From: Patescibacteria group bacterium
Lineage (GTDB): Bacteria > Patescibacteriota > Microgenomatia > Daviesbacterales > UBA10151
Reading direction: 5' to 3'
DNA length: 49,731 bases
Assembly: GCA_018817205.1 (NCBI GenBank)
Contig: JAHIUE010000080.1
Coordinates: 1-49,731 of the forward strand
Positions 7,506-45,609 of the stretch are shown here, piece after piece (the first letter of the stretch is position 1; each line of letters starts with the position of its first letter). The position numbers were made by a program, and so were the translations under genes. A model generated the notes under the pieces. That model was not told the DNA's origin and made no database searches. It saw only the letters and a list, made by a program, of their open reading frames with translations.

Positions 7506-7580
7506 TGGTGGACACTGTAGGATTTGAACCTACGGCCCCCTCGATGTGAACGAGGTGCTCTACCGCTGAGCTAAGTGTCC
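7506..7580 (-). tRNA. tRNA-Val (anticodon CAC), CCA encoded
   Basis: The reverse complement folds as a cloverleaf: GGACACU-UA-GCUC-AGCGGUA-GAGC-A-CCUCG-UUCACAU-CGAGG-GGGCC-GUAGG-UUCAAAU-CCUAC-AGUGUCC-A-CCA. All four stems are Watson-Crick and the T-loop is UUCAAAU. Confidence 0.93.
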
Positions 7581-22584: not shown

Positions 22585-23172
22585 TTACCTTTTTAAGGCA
22601 CGTATCCTAAATAGTGCCGAAATTATTATATGCTTTTTAGGGCTTAAAATTCCGGGACTAATCTCTGCTATTTCAGACTTCAGATCTAATATTTTAATAC
22701 TTTTGGTGCGGTTTTGCAAAAACCTACTCACAAACAGAGCACCGCCAATTGAACCCGGAACGCCTGCAAAATCTATACTCTCCAAACCTTGGGTATCTAA
22801 ATATTCCATGAACCGCTTTATACTTACTCCCGAATCGACTTCTACCAATGCCTCATCGACCCCAATGCCATATTTGGTAACTTTGCCCTTGACCGAAACG
22901 GTTTGTATATTTTTAGTCCTGTTTTTAATAACCAGACCATCAAAACCTTGATCCGATATCATAATTTTACTCCCCGTTCCAAAGAGTAAAAAAGGCAAAT
23001 TCAAATCTCTTGCGAGATTAATGATTTTAATAAGCTCTTGGGTAACAAAAACAATAAAAAATAATTTGGCAGGCCCGCCAACTTCTGTGGCAAAATACTG
23101 CTTTAAAGGCTCGTTAAATTTGAACCTTTCTTTACCGAAAGAATCAATTAGTAGCTTAAATTTGCTTTCCAT
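22585..23172 (-). CDS. MurB-like FAD-binding domain protein, C-terminally short (195 aa)
   Basis: NEPLKQYFATEVGGPAKLF, LFGTGSKIMISD and FAGVPGSIGGAL align to MurB domains 1-2. The ORF ends where the MurB substrate-binding C-domain should start. Confidence 0.7.
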   Translation of the reverse strand: MESKFKLLIDSFGKERFKFNEPLKQYFATEVGGPAKLFFIVFVTQELIKIINLARDLNLPFLLFGTGSKIMISDQGFDGLVIKNRTKNIQTVSVKGKVTKYGIGVDEALVEVDSGVSIKRFMEYLDTQGLESIDFAGVPGSIGGALFVSRFLQNRTKSIKILDLKSEIAEISPGILSPKKHIIISALFRIRALKR

Positions 23173-40760: not shown

Positions 40761-41456
40761 CTATGTGTAATATTTCCTAAGTAAGGCCATTGCCAAAATT
40801 TCAACACAGTTATAAATAGGCAAGGAATATCTCTTTGGAAAAACTAAAGGCAACTCTGTACACCCTAAAATAATTCCTTGCGCCCCTTCCTTTTTTAAAG
40901 AGTTTGCGACCCTTAAAAGCGTTTTTTCATCACTATATGTATTTTTTTCTTTTAAAACATTCTCAACAATATCCTTAAATAGTCTTTGTATATTTTCTGT
41001 CGGGATAAGAACATCTACACCTTTTTTCTTCAAAGCTTCCTGATATAATCCCTCTCTTATTGTAGCAGGAGAAGCCAATAACCCAATTCTATTTACATTA
41101 TCTTTACTTACTTGCAATGCAACTTCCTTAATCATAGAAAGAAATGGAGTTTTTGACACTTGTTGAAGATCATTAAGTAATAAGTGAGCTGTATTGCATA
41201 CAATACAAAAAGATAAAACATCACATTTATCTAATTGAATTACTCTTTGCTTAAGCATTTTCAATGCAATCTTCTTTTCGTAATCATTAGCAATAAAACC
41301 TGGTATAGGAATGGAGTCAAGAATAATTTCCGGAAAATCAGCATTGTTTTTTACACCAAAAAACTTCACTGACAATTCTATCAGTAACTTGCATAAATAT
41401 AATGACGCTTGAGGTCCTATTCCTCCTAAAATACCAATAGCTTTTTTACTTTTCAT
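40761..41456 (-). CDS. Asp/Glu/hydantoin-racemase family protein (aspartate-racemase-like)
   Basis: GILGGIGPQAS, and both catalytic Cys boxes CNTAH and LGCTELPL. The ATG overlaps the radical-SAM stop by 4 nt. Confidence 0.88.
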   Translation of the reverse strand: MKSKKAIGILGGIGPQASLYLCKLLIELSVKFFGVKNNADFPEIILDSIPIPGFIANDYEKKIALKMLKQRVIQLDKCDVLSFCIVCNTAHLLLNDLQQVSKTPFLSMIKEVALQVSKDNVNRIGLLASPATIREGLYQEALKKKGVDVLIPTENIQRLFKDIVENVLKEKNTYSDEKTLLRVANSLKKEGAQGIILGCTELPLVFPKRYSLPIYNCVEILAMALLRKYYT

Positions 41457-42688
41457 ACTTTAAAGATGGTTTTCTCCATTTCTCCAAGAGCCAACCCTGG
41501 CCTGGTATCAAGACCACACTTTATTACTCCTTCTTGTCTTAATAAATCCAAAGAGCAATCACCGCATAAATCCGGCATATCGTCTATTGTCTTTTTCTCT
41601 TCATTAAATATACAATTTAGTTGACAAAGGCGATAACAACCTGTTGTCACTAAACCTGTCCACCAGCAACCCGAACCTCGACATAGCTCCTTACAGCTTT
41701 GAATTCTAAAACCCTGTTCTAAAAATGCTTGCCTTATTGAGTTTTGCTCTATCTGTCCGAAAGTTCCTGATAAGACATTTCCAAATTTAGCATAGTTTGT
41801 ACTACCTCTGCCCATATTAGTACATGGCAAATAAAGCCCATCATTATTGATCTGACCTCCTTTTTTTATCATATCGCATGCTTCATCATAGGCCTGAGGC
41901 GAAACAGCATCATTGTAGGTTGGTAAGATTAATCCTATTTCTCTATCTATCTCTATAAATTCCTCCATTTGGACAACAATCCTTTTGGTTAGCAACGGAT
42001 AAGTAGTCAACCACTCAATCTGCCTATCGTAGCTTTCATTGGGTGGAGATACATATTCCATGATTGGTTTAGTACCCAAACTTTCTCTCGCCCACCTAAA
42101 TACTCTGCTCAAATTGCCGTTATTCATTACAGCATCAGTTAAACAGCATTGCATCATCAATCTATCTCCTCCTTTTTCTTTAAAGATCCTCTCTGCATTT
42201 CTCCATGCCGCATGACTATTTTGAAGAGTACCGAGTTTACCTACACTAACGTCCTGAATCTTTTCCGCTAAAGTATCATCATCTATAGTATGTCTATGCA
42301 TTAATAAACTTACGCCCGGGATAAGCACTTGACGCGCATAGGCTTCATCAGCAAACCTTAATCCATGGCTTATTAACAATACGAACTTAAACCCTAAATT
42401 AACTGCTTCCTGTAATAATTGAGGTAAATCGGGATTTTGTGTGGGTTCCGCACCCAAGAAGTATACTTCAGTAACTCCGGCTTCTCTTAATTTACGCATC
42501 GTTTTGGAAGCAATTTCCGGTAGTAAATAACCTGCTTTTCCAGCCCCGGGAGGTCGATAGCAATGAGGACACGCTAAATCACAAGCTTCTGACGCATCAA
42601 GACCAGCACCATTAATTTTAACTGGTCCGTCTTTTTGACCAGTAAATCCTCTAAATTCGTTTATTGATTCTAATTTGCCTATTGGCAT
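41453..42688 (-). CDS. radical SAM enzyme with Cys-rich SPASM/twitch-like C-terminal domain
   Basis: CDLACPHCY fits CxxxCxxC; GAEPTQNPDL fits the GGEP-like motif. The C-terminal cluster is CKELCRGSGCWWTGLVTTGCYRLCQLNC...CGDC. AGGAGAGGA RBS at 42691-42699. Confidence 0.85.
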   Translation of the reverse strand: MPIGKLESINEFRGFTGQKDGPVKINGAGLDASEACDLACPHCYRPPGAGKAGYLLPEIASKTMRKLREAGVTEVYFLGAEPTQNPDLPQLLQEAVNLGFKFVLLISHGLRFADEAYARQVLIPGVSLLMHRHTIDDDTLAEKIQDVSVGKLGTLQNSHAAWRNAERIFKEKGGDRLMMQCCLTDAVMNNGNLSRVFRWARESLGTKPIMEYVSPPNESYDRQIEWLTTYPLLTKRIVVQMEEFIEIDREIGLILPTYNDAVSPQAYDEACDMIKKGGQINNDGLYLPCTNMGRGSTNYAKFGNVLSGTFGQIEQNSIRQAFLEQGFRIQSCKELCRGSGCWWTGLVTTGCYRLCQLNCIFNEEKKTIDDMPDLCGDCSLDLLRQEGVIKCGLDTRPGLALGEMEKTIFKV

Positions 42689-42707
42689 ATTCCTCTCCTT
42701 TCCATTT

Positions 42708-42756
42708 AAAAAACCCTTGCAAATTTCCGATCAATACAATCAGAAACTCACAAGGG
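42708..42756 (-). terminator. intrinsic terminator of the T-box leader
   Basis: 18-bp hairpin (4 G-U pairs) pairing 42739-42756 with 42714-42731, 7-nt loop, followed by UUUUUU (42708-42713). Its 5' arm CCCUUG is shared with the antiterminator. Confidence 0.8.
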
Positions 42757-42901
42757 CCATTTAGGCGGTGCCACCTTGATTTTTACTTATTCATGCTCTT
42801 CTTTTTCTTCATAGAAAACAAAGAGTGCTGACTTTTACGGTTTCGCCTCCGTAGCATACTCTTGCTCTACTCCCCGGTTCCAACCTTCCGGATCAAAGCA
42901 T
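42708..42901 (-). promoter_or_regulatory. T-box riboswitch (tRNA-responsive leader)
   Basis: T-box core AAGGUGGCACCGCC (42764-42777). Canonical antiterminator: helix CAAGG/CCUUG, 7-nt bulge UGGCACC, helix GCC/GGC, loop UAAAU. A competing terminator is present. The Stem-I-like part has a K-turn-like base, an AGAGUA bulge and an AGGCGAAA distal loop. Confidence 0.75.
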
Positions 42902-42912
42902 TTATAGTTTTT

Positions 42913-43170
42913 CTAATTTACTACTTTAAATCTTCCTTTCTGCAGTTCTCTTGAACCGCGGGTTACTGTTGCAACCCCAACTCCTAAACTTTCTGCAATT
43001 CCCTGCTGGGGAATACCCTGTTTTAGCATTTTAACAATACGCAATCTCATTGGAATTTCCAGCCGTTCCTTTGGAGTTAAAATCCCCAAAAGAAAATCTT
43101 CCATCTTGTCTTCTCTTTTAATAGTTAATAATAAATTAATCAACTCTTGAAGTTGCTTATTTCTAACCAT
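42913..43170 (-). CDS. TrpR-family (TrpR / YerC-YecD-like) repressor
   Basis: 85 aa. LLGILTPKERLEIPMRLRIVKMLKQGIPQQGIAESLGVGVATVTRGSRELQ aligns with E. coli TrpR [53 protein letters not shown] (recalled sequence). Confidence 0.85.
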   Translation of the reverse strand: MVRNKQLQELINLLLTIKREDKMEDFLLGILTPKERLEIPMRLRIVKMLKQGIPQQGIAESLGVGVATVTRGSRELQKGRFKVVN

Positions 43171-43173
43171 TGC

Positions 43174-43207
43174 GTACTAGTATACTAGTACAAGAGTATT
43201 GTGTCAA
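43174..43207 (-). promoter_or_regulatory. promoter with an overlapping perfect 18-bp trp-operator-like palindrome
   Basis: Minus strand: TTGACA (43202-43207), 17-nt spacer, TATACT (43179-43184), then 8 nt to ATG 43170. The palindrome GTACTAGTATACTAGTAC (43174-43191) covers the -10. Confidence 0.75.
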
Positions 43208-43234: not shown

Positions 43235-43636
43235 TTATAGTTGCAGGTCTGTGATGGCTCTTGCTAAATCTTCAATCGTACTCCACTTGAATGATTGGGA
43301 TGCTATCGCCGGCACATACGTTTTCGTAACGGTGTCTTTAGTTGCCGCAATAATTGGGACCCTTTTCGCCATGCAGTAACCTACCTCAATCAACATCCCT
43401 TCACTTTTGTTATCTGAAGTCTGAACCACAAAGAGAAAATCTGCATTGTCGATAATGCCAAAAGCGTGTTCCATGATTTGGCGGACACCAAGAGATTTAC
43501 CTTCTATGGCCTCATCAAAGAAAGTACTGTATGCCTCGATCCCTCGACCTTTGAACGCCTCCCTGATAGCAATCAGTACAGGTTCGACTGCCTGAGGATC
43601 CTCACCAGTCGAGCGGTAAGCAATAAAGGCTTTCAT
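43235..43636 (-). CDS. nucleoside 2-deoxyribosyltransferase-like / TIR-like flavodoxin-fold protein
   Basis: 133 aa. MKAFIAYRSTGED start, DNADFLFVV, and SEGMLIEVGYCMAKRVPIIA resemble the NDT family pattern (aD.vva.l....s.Gt..E.GyA.a.gkPv). About 50 % GC. Confidence 0.55.
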   Translation of the reverse strand: MKAFIAYRSTGEDPQAVEPVLIAIREAFKGRGIEAYSTFFDEAIEGKSLGVRQIMEHAFGIIDNADFLFVVQTSDNKSEGMLIEVGYCMAKRVPIIAATKDTVTKTYVPAIASQSFKWSTIEDLARAITDLQL

Positions 43637-43739
43637 AATAAGCTAATTATAGCAAATGCAAAAAGATTGTCCCAGCCTACGCTTTACTTATTATGAAATT
43701 AAAATATAATAAGCTTCATAAATTGAACTATAGAGTCAT

Positions 43740-44819
43740 ATGAGCGCCTGCGAACAATTGGATACAGTAGTTACCCGACGATTAGATGAGTATGCATCAG
43801 CCGTTACCACACCTGATGCTCCTGAAGTTGCCTTACCCGGAGGTATCGAGATAATTAATACCGAGTTCACGCCAGATACCTTGGGTATGAAGGTTGTTTT
43901 CACCGGCACGCGGAACGACGGTAAGGTAGCCACCTTTGAAACCGGCAGCTTTTTAGATAATGGCGGGGTCGAAAACGCTTCCGATCGACATGATATTTGT
44001 GTATCGACTGCCGGCGGTTGCACTAAGGCTTGCCGGTTCTGTTCGGTGCCATATTCTGAACTTGGCTTTGAACGCCTACTCACCGCCGAAGAATTGGTGG
44101 TCCAGACTATCTATACGATTCTGGAACGAAATCGCGGGGCTTCTATGCCAAATGCTCTAGGCTTCATGGGTAATGGTGAACCATCAGATAACGCCGCCGT
44201 CATCCCGGCAGTATGTTACTTAGCTGACAAACCTGAGCTAAATATAGAAAGAGTTACCTTTTCGACGATCGGCGAAAATATAGCCGGCATTGGTAAAATG
44301 GCCAGGAGTTTTGCTCAGCTCGATATGCGAACCATTATGCAATTTAGTCTGCATGCCGCCGATGAGACAAAACGCCGCTCAATCATACCAGGTCGAAAAC
44401 CACTTGATAAGATTCTAAAGGCGATCGATGGATACGGTGAAGTTACCGGTGAACCGGTAAAGTTCAATGTCGCACTCATGGATGGCACCTATGATTTCAA
44501 AGGCTTTACTAATGCTTCGCCAGAGGATGCTCGAATGTTGGCGCAAATCCTTACGGCACCAAGTGCCGTTTCGGGCAATCCCATCAGACGGCTCCTCAAG
44601 CTATCCGCCTACAATAGTGTTCCAGGTATACCATTTGAGCCGGCGTCATCTGTCGCAGTAGAAGCTTTTGTGGCTATTTTAGCTGAACATGGTATAACTG
44701 ATATTCAAAGGTTTCGGGGAAGTGGTATAGAAATTAATGAACAAAAAACTATTGGCGGCTTCGCTTGTGGACAGCTCAGAGCCACCACACCTAATACCCT
44801 AGCGAAAGTTCATCAATAA
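43740..44819 (+). CDS. RlmN/Cfr-family radical SAM methyltransferase-like enzyme lacking the N-terminal RNA-binding domain
   Basis: ICVSTAGGCTKACRFCS matches RlmN LCVSSQVGCALECKFCS, including the Cys118 equivalent. Also FMGNGEP, VTFSTIG, FSLHA, and C-terminal FACGQL (Cys355 equivalent). 359 aa. Confidence 0.8.
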   Translation: MSACEQLDTVVTRRLDEYASAVTTPDAPEVALPGGIEIINTEFTPDTLGMKVVFTGTRNDGKVATFETGSFLDNGGVENASDRHDICVSTAGGCTKACRFCSVPYSELGFERLLTAEELVVQTIYTILERNRGASMPNALGFMGNGEPSDNAAVIPAVCYLADKPELNIERVTFSTIGENIAGIGKMARSFAQLDMRTIMQFSLHAADETKRRSIIPGRKPLDKILKAIDGYGEVTGEPVKFNVALMDGTYDFKGFTNASPEDARMLAQILTAPSAVSGNPIRRLLKLSAYNSVPGIPFEPASSVAVEAFVAILAEHGITDIQRFRGSGIEINEQKTIGGFACGQLRATTPNTLAKVHQ

Positions 44820-45571
44820 GAATCAACGGCGGTAGCCGGTTTTTGGGTACTGACGAATAGGTGTAAGAATGGGAAAGATAAGCGGTCGGCGGTATGATAC
44901 CTATCGCCTAAGATTGTAACCACTTCGTCCGCTCTTTCCATGAAAGCATCGTTTCTCGCTCGCTCACCGTTAGAGGCCAGGAAGGCCATAGCCATTATCA
45001 TTTGAGTTACAGTGTCGGCTGTCAAGGTGCTGGTGACGTTTTGAATCTCAGTTTCTCCCTTAGCTTGCAAAGCACGTAGACAATCATGCAAGCTGTCATT
45101 AAATTGCTCACTATAACCAAGCCCGACATGGTCAAGTAGTTGGCTCCAGTCATCCTGCTTGATGCCGAGGTGGGTGACCACCAGCAAATGTCCGCCGGGT
45201 TTGACTAGTCCCCAGGCCGGGGGAACTAGCGTGGCGTGCTCACCGGCTGTGTGGGAAATGACATGGGACATCAGCACTAGGTCGTACAAACCCTTAACCT
45301 CTGTAGGAAACACTTCCTCAATAACCTGTTTGCCGGCCTGACGCAACCGGGCGGCGTACTGCGGGTTCTGCTCAATGGCCACATAATCCTCAACCATTTC
45401 TGAAAGAGGCAGAGCTACTTGGCCGTCGCCAGCGCCAATGTCGAGCAACGAGTTAGCATTATAGCGAATGATGTAGTCAGAGAATTTCGCAACATAAATT
45501 TGCTTTTCATCGGTACACTGCAGAAGGCTTTCAAGGCCTTGATAGTAGAGAACTTCAAAAGTCTGCGGCAT
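44813..45571 (-). CDS. class I SAM-dependent methyltransferase
   Basis: LLDIGAGDGQVA (motif I), VAIEQNP (motif II), YDLVLMSHVISH, LKPGGHLLV. Converges on the RlmN-like gene with a 7-nt overlap. Confidence 0.8.
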   Translation of the reverse strand: MPQTFEVLYYQGLESLLQCTDEKQIYVAKFSDYIIRYNANSLLDIGAGDGQVALPLSEMVEDYVAIEQNPQYAARLRQAGKQVIEEVFPTEVKGLYDLVLMSHVISHTAGEHATLVPPAWGLVKPGGHLLVVTHLGIKQDDWSQLLDHVGLGYSEQFNDSLHDCLRALQAKGETEIQNVTSTLTADTVTQMIMAMAFLASNGERARNDAFMERADEVVTILGDRYHTADRLSFPFLHLFVSTQKPATAVDSY

Positions 45572-45581
45572 ATATTGTGAG

Positions 45582-45609
45582 ATTATAGCTTATAACCAAA
45601 TTATGTCAA
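45582..45609 (-). promoter_or_regulatory. consensus sigma70 promoter of the methyltransferase gene
   Basis: Minus strand: TTGACA (45604-45609, overlapping the stop of the upstream GT4 gene), 16-nt spacer, TATAAT (45582-45587), then 10 nt to ATG 45571. Confidence 0.55.

Follow-up and report, generated by a model that had tools for sequence, protein, structure and literature searches.

A probable tryptophan-specific T-box riboswitch with an ultrashort Stem I ahead of a radical-SAM and racemase operon in a Patescibacteria bacterium

T-box riboswitches are leader elements through which bacteria sense the charging of a tRNA. Class I T-boxes, which are described by the Rfam family RF00230 and include those of tryptophan genes in Firmicutes, combine a kink-turn (K-turn), a specifier followed by a purine, a Stem II/IIA region and a Stem III with a 14-nt T-box sequence that carries a UGGN bulge, a competing terminator, and a cargo matched to the amino acid (trpS, trp genes). 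According to a 2020 review, transcriptional T-boxes generally need a long Stem I with a double T-loop that binds the tRNA elbow, whereas an ultrashort Stem I is typical of the translational T-boxes of actinobacteria, in which the Stem II domain is essential (PMC7583486). In these actinobacterial ileS elements (Mycobacterium, Nocardia), Stem I is a hairpin with the specifier in its loop, a platform is absent, a Stem II + IIA/B domain clamps the codon-anticodon duplex, and the Shine-Dalgarno sequence is sequestered (Sherwood et al. 2015, as cited in PMC7583486). The glyQS T-boxes, which are the minimal natural transcriptional ones, have no Stem II domain and have kept the long Stem I with its platform. 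In Bacillus subtilis, tryptophan is sensed in two ways, by TRAP for the free amino acid and by a T-box on the anti-TRAP operon for tRNA-Trp charging. Here we describe a T-box leader on the minus strand of the 49,731-nt contig JAHIUE010000080.1 (GenBank assembly GCA_018817205.1) from a Patescibacteria group bacterium; this whole stretch is referred to below as the window. The leader lies between a trpR-family gene and an operon that encodes a radical S-adenosylmethionine (radical-SAM) protein and an amino-acid racemase.

The element is very probably a tryptophan-specific, transcription-attenuating T-box riboswitch of an ultrashort-Stem-I class that is widespread in Patescibacteria/Microgenomates. 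It shares with class I T-boxes the features named for them at the outset, from the K-turn to the matched cargo, but about 74 Stem I positions are gone, including the AG bulge and the distal loop, the specifier loop is terminal instead of internal, Stem II has 4 bp, the host is a member of the Patescibacteria, and the leader occupies an intercistronic position behind trpR. Its cargo also differs, comprising the radical-SAM and racemase genes and, in relatives (loci given below by L numbers), tRNA-Trp itself. The hairpin Stem I with its loop specifier, the lack of a platform and the Stem II + IIA/B domain are held in common with the ileS T-boxes, which sequester the Shine-Dalgarno sequence, whereas the window leader has a 20-bp terminator with a U-tract and leaves the ribosome-binding site free. 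Those elements serve isoleucine and the present one tryptophan, with a far shorter Stem II, and the whole Stem II domain is missing from L012, L016, L018, L024 and L035. The glyQS T-boxes are alike in their reduced architecture, G/C-rich codon-anticodon pair and transcription attenuation; what they have lost and kept is the opposite of the situation in the window leader, and its minimal relatives are without both the Stem II domain and the long Stem I.

The leader begins 5 nt past the trpR stop codon and is contained in the 224-nt gap before the radical-SAM gene (Table 1). The T-box core AAGGUGGCACCGCC (42777-42764) is part of an antiterminator in which helix A1 pairs CAAGG (42778-42774) with CCUUG (42755-42751), a 7-nt bulge UGGCACC (42773-42767) starts with UGGN, and helix A2 joins GCC to GGC across the loop UAAAU (42766-42756). 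The 3' arm of the antiterminator is reused as the 5' arm of the terminator, and the two folds are mutually exclusive. A preliminary description of the window, made from its letters, had placed the core, both helices, the bulge, the loop, the terminator and the U-tract at these positions, and all were confirmed on the minus strand; it had also located the hairpin correctly (42714-42756) and given it 18 bp, where the terminator scan counts 20 pairs. Relatives were collected by searching metagenome contigs for exact copies of the 22-nt Stem I sequence; 34 contigs were returned, and in nearly all of them the copy is followed by a T-box core, antiterminator helices and an extended hairpin with a U-run. 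Among 24 aligned discriminator domains, 97.9% of the antiterminator cells are paired and all three A2 pairs show compensatory double changes, a score reached by none of 500 shuffles, while the first 14 terminator pairs are paired in 92.8% of cells with compensatory changes at nine of them (0/500 shuffles as good). Sliding the partner columns as a control lowered pairing in this alignment to 17-60%. The minimum free energy of the window leader has a z-score of -4.06, and none of 200 shuffles was equally stable. Since the terminator (-27 kcal/mol) is far stronger than the antiterminator alone (-6.9 kcal/mol), termination would be the default state, as in known T-boxes. In about 30 kindred leaders from Patescibacteria metagenomes, the core, the antiterminator, the terminator and the U-tract show both conservation and covariation.

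The architecture of this domain also bears on the level at which control is exerted. The translational class is recognised by an ultrashort Stem I that carries the specifier in its terminal loop (PMC7583486), which would make the window leader an ileS-type element whose ribosome-binding site is freed on tRNA binding, but such a role is very unlikely here: six U residues come directly after the last base of the hairpin (42714), the ribosome-binding site lies outside every helix of the alternative fold, the hairpin and U-run are kept across the leader family, and in five loci the next gene or operon includes a tRNA, which is not translated. Control is best described as transcriptional because what competes with the antiterminator is a terminator hairpin and U-tract that leave the ribosome-binding site free. 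An ultrashort Stem I and an intrinsic terminator thus occur together in the window element, whereas the review ties the ultrashort Stem I to translational actinobacterial T-boxes only (PMC7583486). Many long-form leaders (L013, L014, L015, L020, L022, L023, L027, L028, L031, L037, L041, L043, L044 and L045) have an extra GC-rich, terminator-like hairpin with a U-run between Stem III and the T-box core, which the window is without. It is flanked by repeated AAUAAGG, CCUUAUU and AAUUAAGG segments, for which alternative pairings are conceivable, and is possibly a second attenuator.

Against RF00230, the leader gave no match in a scan at the gathering threshold (93 bits); with permissive filters on 42600-43000, model positions 1-219 matched 42905-42749 at 36.3 bits (E = 1.2e-6), which, with the fold stability and the compensatory changes in relatives, supports the proposed antiterminator/terminator switch. 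The preliminary description had called the T-box canonical and had held that a score under the gathering threshold would speak against it. The score does lie under that threshold, and with its ultrashort Stem I the element is not canonical; the shortfall is attributable to the deletion of 74 Stem I consensus positions, the distal two-thirds, and not to the element being spurious. In the cmscan alignment, Stem I reads GC-UUUGAU-CCGG-[AAGGUUGG]-CCGG-GGA-GU, with 8 nt left between the strands and no elbow platform (AG bulge and distal loop, forming interdigitated T-loops); this double T-loop was seen in no family member's leader. The K-turn has a C-stem of UGC (42900-42898) and GUA (42870-42868), a UUU bulge, and GA (42894-42893) opposite GA (42872-42871), and it is followed by the helix UCCGG (42892-42888) with CCGGG (42877-42873) and the terminal loop AAGGUUGGAA (42887-42878), reading AAGGU-UGG-AA. 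Farther downstream, cmscan puts ACGGAGGCGAAACCGU on Stem IIA/B.

Covariation across the 11 leaders of window architecture bears out this 5' structure, whose 24 pairs (K-turn C-stem, Stem I, 4-bp Stem II, Stem IIA and two-part Stem III) are 98.5% paired, with 13 doubly changed and none of 500 shuffles as good. Double changes affect two of the three C-stem pairs, and compensatory changes three of the four in Stem II; Stem IIA is paired in 97.7% of cells and has one compensatory pair (ACAG/CUGU), and Stem III is paired in all of them, with seven of eight pairs doubly changed and its UG/AG internal loop conserved. Stem I is invariant in the main alignment set because the relatives were found with its exact sequence; in L004 (AGAGC/GCUCU), L008 (UCAAGC/GCUUGA) and L049 (AGGAA/UUCCU) the stem sequence is changed and the loop GGUUGG kept. 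The linker motif appears as AAGUA or GAGUA 6-9 nt ahead of the T-box core in short-linker and minimal leaders. A family covariance model built from the 5' domain (R1) matches the window at 42908-42786 with 123 bits (E = 4e-31) and retrieves family members at up to 139 bits, all except the three divergent leaders L004, L008 and L049. A second R1 match in the window (22904-22994, E = 0.08) falls in coding-like sequence without a T-box core and was rejected.

These results replace the 5' half of the preliminary description, which had drawn the T-box as canonical, its Stem I long (42793-42901) and set on a K-turn base, with an AGAGUA bulge, a distal platform-like loop AGGCGAAA, no Stem II, IIA/B or III, and GAA or UGG as specifier. 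The closing strands AUGC (42901-42898) and GCAU (42796-42793) are complementary in the single sequence of the window, and AGAGUA and AGGCGAAA look superficially like Stem I motifs. However, the long closing helix is 27% paired in the 11 leaders, has no covarying pair and is no better than shuffles; cmscan and covariation together assign AGAGUA to the loop of the 4-bp Stem II and AGGCGAAA to the loop of Stem IIA; and Stems II, IIA and III are present and covary. The hairpin CCGG-AAGGUUGGAA-CCGG, which had been set aside as an extra one, is by cmscan the true Stem I. In relatives, the Stem III helix that contains the GAA triplet has a wholly different sequence, and every genomic association is with tryptophan and none with glutamate. 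A long Stem I is hence scarcely tenable.

The specificity of the ultrashort-Stem-I T-box can be read from its loop and its cargo. Each of the 34 different Stem I loops in the tabulation has kept GGUUGG, and with it UGG before a purine, across four stem sequences; UGG plus purine is the sole conserved codon-like feature there. As the genes downstream are trpS, trpE-like, trpB2 and tRNA-Trp, the predicted specificity is for tryptophan, and the choice between the two specifiers considered earlier is settled in favour of UGG; GAA is not conserved. Two other assignments were tried and rejected: GAA as a glutamate specifier, which sits in the distal helix of Stem III, is unrelated in sequence in other leaders and is associated with no Glu gene, and the alternative frames of GGUUGG, namely GGU (Gly), GUU (Val) and UUG (Leu), because of the surrounding genes. 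Five of the loci have a tRNA-Trp(CCA) gene inside the controlled operon, right after the terminator in L004, L008, L022/L029 and L041 (usually 20-40 nt past it) and between the first open reading frame (ORF) and the racemase gene in L015. The fourth base of UGGN matches the discriminator of the adjacent tRNA-Trp, UGGC accompanying G73 in L015 and L041, UGGU accompanying A73 in L022, and UGGU facing G73 in L004 and L008, where the pair is a wobble; the UGGC of the window fits a G73 tRNA-Trp, as had been expected from its bulge. In the tRNA-Trp loci, the riboswitch appears to control transcription of the gene for its own ligand.

The genes that follow the family leaders comprise trpS, anthranilate-synthase-like (trpE-like) genes at two loci, trpB2, members of the racemase family, radical-SAM genes, AstE/AspA-type deacylases and several unknowns. 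A trpS gene lies within about four genes of the leader in 12 loci, and the NCBIfam assignments are firm for TrpRS (TIGR00233, 271-308 bits, cutoff 177) and TrpB2 (NF009057, about 695 bits, cutoff 366). Five minimal leaders, each about 100-130 nt long, are made up of Stem I, a purine-rich RAGUA linker of about 25 nt and the antiterminator/terminator, without Stems II, IIA and III, and precede trpS, trpE-like genes and a radical-SAM gene. No recognisable T-box was found at L006 and L011, which have the radical-SAM or trpR context, and the core of L047 is doubtful. In L026 (8231-8344, minus strand), a hairpin and U-run come straight after the same Stem I and there is no T-box core; this may be a T-box in decay or some other kind of element.

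L026 is also the kind of observation that would be expected if the window leader were a decayed T-box, an attenuator that no longer senses tRNA, is constitutive or under protein control, and leaves TrpR as the real regulator. A transcriptional T-box that has lost its platform is expected to be severely impaired (PMC7583486), and a TrpR-family gene with an operator is present upstream. A relic, however, would not have kept UGG, the UGGN bulge, both alternative helices and compensatory Stems II, IIA and III in about 30 leaders, would not precede trpS and trpE in loci that lack trpR, and would not track the discriminator of an adjacent tRNA-Trp, and decay is therefore considered unlikely, if the least improbable of the alternatives to a working tryptophan T-box.

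A second tryptophan sensor seems to act upstream of this T-box. The 85-aa product of the trpR-family gene scores 58.8 bits against the NCBIfam TrpR equivalog, under its cutoff of 67.25, in addition to its Pfam match (Table 1). The promoter ahead of the gene is the best match of a 5-kb scan, and TTGACA occurs at the same spacing upstream of trpR in L002, L006, L012, L019 and L034. The palindrome that overlaps it has no other match in the window, where 0.08 chance matches are expected even with 3 mismatches, and it is conserved at the same position in those five other loci. Its half-sites ACTAGT are identical to those of the TrpR operator DNA TGTACTAGTTAACTAGTACA in PDB entry 1TRO (PMC2504314). 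Since the palindrome stops 3 nt short of the ATG, the trpR mRNA would be leaderless. Neither a separate leader promoter nor a terminator is recognisable between trpR and the K-turn, and from this and the 5-nt gap we infer that trpR, the leader, the radical-SAM gene and the racemase gene form one transcript. This suggests a putative two-tier control, in which TrpR, responding to free tryptophan, acts first and the T-box, responding to tRNA-Trp charging, acts second. As in E. coli TrpR autoregulation, a palindrome with E. coli operator half-sites overlaps the promoter of the trpR-family gene itself, and as in B. subtilis, sensing of free tryptophan and of tRNA-Trp is apparently combined; the window differs from both in that a single transcript apparently comes under the two sensors in turn, first through the operator at its promoter and then through the T-box, which separates trpR from the cargo.

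The mechanism that we propose would begin at the TrpR-operated promoter, from which transcription would pass through trpR into the leader. The K-turn-based 5-bp Stem I would then offer UGG plus purine in its terminal loop to the CCA anticodon of tRNA-Trp, while Stems II, IIA and III, whose structures are drawn from covariation, may clamp and position the anticodon, by analogy with the actinobacterial ileS T-boxes. When the tRNA-Trp is uncharged, its 3' end G73-C-C-A would pair with the bulge UGGC and stabilise the weak antiterminator over the terminator, so that RNA polymerase reads into the radical-SAM and racemase genes; with charged tRNA-Trp, the terminator would form and transcription end at the U-tract. 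The operon would in this way answer both free tryptophan, through TrpR, and tRNA-Trp charging, through the T-box.

Several observations weigh against this mechanism or parts of it. The RF00230 score is far under the gathering score, and the leader has no elbow platform, which is deemed essential for transcriptional T-boxes (PMC7583486) and bears on kinetic competence. The window contains no tRNA-Trp gene, and G73 is taken from relatives, one of which has A73. Co-transcription with trpR is drawn from the short gap and from the lack of a recognisable promoter or terminator in between. Covariation of Stem I depends on L004, L008 and L049, the divergent leaders missed by model R1. With its 4 bp and a loop of 6 nt, the Stem II hairpin cannot form an S-turn, and the tentative partner in the IIB pseudoknot has 2-3 possible pairs and one compensatory case (L013).

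That the leader precedes a radical-SAM and racemase operon had been noted before, and the gene order was confirmed; the start codon region of the racemase gene overlaps the radical-SAM stop by 4 nt. This cargo had been thought unusual, as it is by annotation, but it is not anomalous, for it recurs in tryptophan T-box operons. The radical-SAM family comprises 27 clusters with 59-74% identity, all named members being from Patescibacteria or Microgenomates, and has eleven more invariant cysteines besides CxxxCxxC. NCBIfam and PDB sequence searches match solely its N-terminal radical-SAM core; the AlphaFold model is weak (mean predicted local distance difference test 58.7, disordered C-terminus), and Foldseek returned only generic radical-SAM cores at a template-modelling score of about 0.3. 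The racemase passes the general model TIGR00035 (cutoff 93.1) and no specific equivalog.

Contigs with radical-SAM homologues show two operon types, one as in the window (trpR, leader, radical-SAM gene, racemase gene) and one with trpR and trpB2 as optional members, then genes for a flavin reductase and the radical-SAM protein, optionally an AlaX-like gene, and trpS. Operons with trpB2, flavin reductase, radical-SAM and trpS genes stand behind the same kind of leader in L004, L008, L010, L048 and L049, and in L002, L009, L015 and L019 a racemase homologue comes after the T-box, recurrently beside trpS and tRNA-Trp. In the open-access literature, nothing was found that joins TrpB2 with radical-SAM proteins. 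By gene context, the radical-SAM and racemase genes are regular members of the predicted Patescibacterial tryptophan regulon, and because they stand repeatedly behind tryptophan T-boxes beside trpS, trpB2, tRNA-Trp and deacylase-like genes, they most likely help to acquire or salvage tryptophan, perhaps with D-tryptophan or a modified tryptophan as substrate. Homologues of AstE/AspA-type deacylases lie downstream of tryptophan T-boxes at L013 71-658, L020 3376-3774, L031 5504-6727 and L037 2363-3109, the last locus having a DUF3182 gene in addition; their recurrence would be compatible with salvage of acylated tryptophan. tRNA-editing modules also occur near these genes, as a YbaK-type domain fused to TrpRS (L043 2-1141, minus strand), an AlaXM-like gene between the radical-SAM gene and trpS (L004 6287-7003, L008 3593-4312), a YbaK-like gene beside the racemase gene (L002 6936-7409) and a nearby D-aminoacyl-tRNA deacylase gene (L006 942-1433).

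Seen together, these loci may, with roughly even chances, represent an uncatalogued Patescibacteria class of terminating T-boxes that sense tRNA-Trp without elbow contact, in which versions of about 100 nt (before trpS and trpE) use the anticodon and NCCA alone, and which also controls the tRNA-Trp gene and a radical-SAM/racemase salvage module, in series with a TrpR operator. A family that unites an ultrashort Stem I with a terminator challenges the rule that transcriptional T-boxes need a long Stem I and elbow platform to catch the tRNA before polymerase reaches the terminator (PMC7583486), and its leaders, about 100-200 nt long, would be minimal tRNA sensors of natural origin for use in mechanistic study and engineering. 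Across about 17 relatives (68 kb), RF00230 detected two, at about 35 bits; at scores of this order or none, catalogues built on Rfam thresholds would miss the leader class, and such annotation likely overlooks T-box regulation in bacteria of the Candidate Phyla Radiation (CPR). No paper tying T-boxes to Patescibacteria or CPR was found in the open-access literature, and an earlier description elsewhere is possible. Through tryptophan, the putative regulon also gives a specific, testable lead on an orphan radical-SAM family, on a racemase and on several deacylase-like genes of biosynthesis-poor organisms, and it presents a two-sensor design, with TrpR for free tryptophan and the T-box for tRNA-Trp charging.

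Table 1. Features of the T-box leader and its surroundings in the window, with corresponding features of related loci (L numbers).
Feature	Position	Strand	Basis or remark
Whole T-box leader, K-turn to U-tract	42708-42908	-	RF00230 match, family model R1, terminator scan
Ultrashort Stem I: K-turn base, 5-bp helix, terminal loop	42868-42900	-	cmscan alignment; covariation
Predicted specifier UGG (Trp), then purine A42879	42880-42882	-	Conserved loop; Trp genes downstream
Stem II-like hairpin AGCA-AGAGUA-UGCU	42853-42866	-	cmscan: AGAGUA aligned to Stem II AGUA box
Stem IIA hairpin ACGG-AGGCGAAA-CCGU	42837-42852	-	cmscan alignment to IIA/B element
Stem III: outer CUCUU/AAGAG, UG/AG internal loop, inner UUUUCU/AGAAAA	42796-42825	-	Covariation
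Purine-rich linker CAUGAAUAAGUAAAAAU with conserved RAGUA motif	42779-42795	-	AAGUA/GAGUA in relatives
Antiterminator: A1 CAAGG/CCUUG, bulge, A2 GCC-UAAAU-GGC	42751-42778	-	Covariation in 24 leaders; -6.9 kcal/mol
Intrinsic terminator: hairpin 42756-42714 and UUUUUU 42713-42708	42708-42756	-	20-bp stem by terminator scan
Ribosome-binding site AGGAGAGGA	42699-42691	-	8 nt past U-tract, 15 nt past terminator hairpin
Radical-SAM gene, 411 aa, CxxxCxxC at C36/C40/C43, Cys-rich C-terminus	41453-42688	-	Pfam Radical_SAM
Asp/Glu-family amino-acid racemase gene, 231 aa	40761-41456	-	Pfam Asp_Glu_race 102.8 bits; TIGR00035 136.5 bits
trpR-family repressor gene, 85 aa, apparently leaderless	42913-43170	-	Pfam Trp_repressor (PF01371) 72.4 bits, E = 3e-20
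Sigma-70-like promoter: TTGACA (43207-43202), 17-nt spacer, TATACT (43184-43179)	43179-43207	-	11/12 consensus match
trp-operator-like perfect 18-bp palindrome GTACTAGTATACTAGTAC	43174-43191		Overlaps -10 box; ends 3 nt before trpR ATG
tRNA-Trp(CCA) genes of relatives	L004 4180-4254; L008 1492-1564; L015 1356-1433; L022 1373-1447 (also L029 6630-6704); L041 4669-4743		
Minimal leaders of relatives	L012 761-900; L016 968-850; L018 1333-1460; L024 663-800; L035 951-820		
tRNA-Met(CAT) genes of relatives	L020 2203-2359; L023 462-536; L037 4573-4645; L038 568-724; L041 5048-5120; L049 1040-1114		

Other features of these regions were recorded in passing. Between a glycosyltransferase gene and trpR, the window has a GC-richer island (43235-45600; 44-51% against 32-41% in the flanks) with genes for a nucleoside-deoxyribosyltransferase-like protein (43235-43636, minus strand), a Cfr/RlmN-like radical-SAM protein (43740-44819, plus strand) and a methyltransferase (44813-45571, minus strand); the syntenic locus L002 has nothing at this place, which suggests an insertion. 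A tRNA-Val(CAC) gene (7506-7580, minus strand) is the sole match at Rfam gathering level and the sole tRNA gene of the window. The first ORF past the tryptophan T-box of L014 (304-561) encodes an 86-aa Cys-rich protein with a weak Pfam match to Anti-TRAP (E = 2.8e-4, 21.3 bits, under the cutoff of 32). In several loci, one or two tRNA-Met(CAT) genes stand directly upstream of the leader, and near the tryptophan loci L004 (2950-3164, minus strand, 74.2 bits) and L041 (5920-6110, plus strand, 72.7 bits) there are matches to group I introns that exceed the Rfam gathering score.

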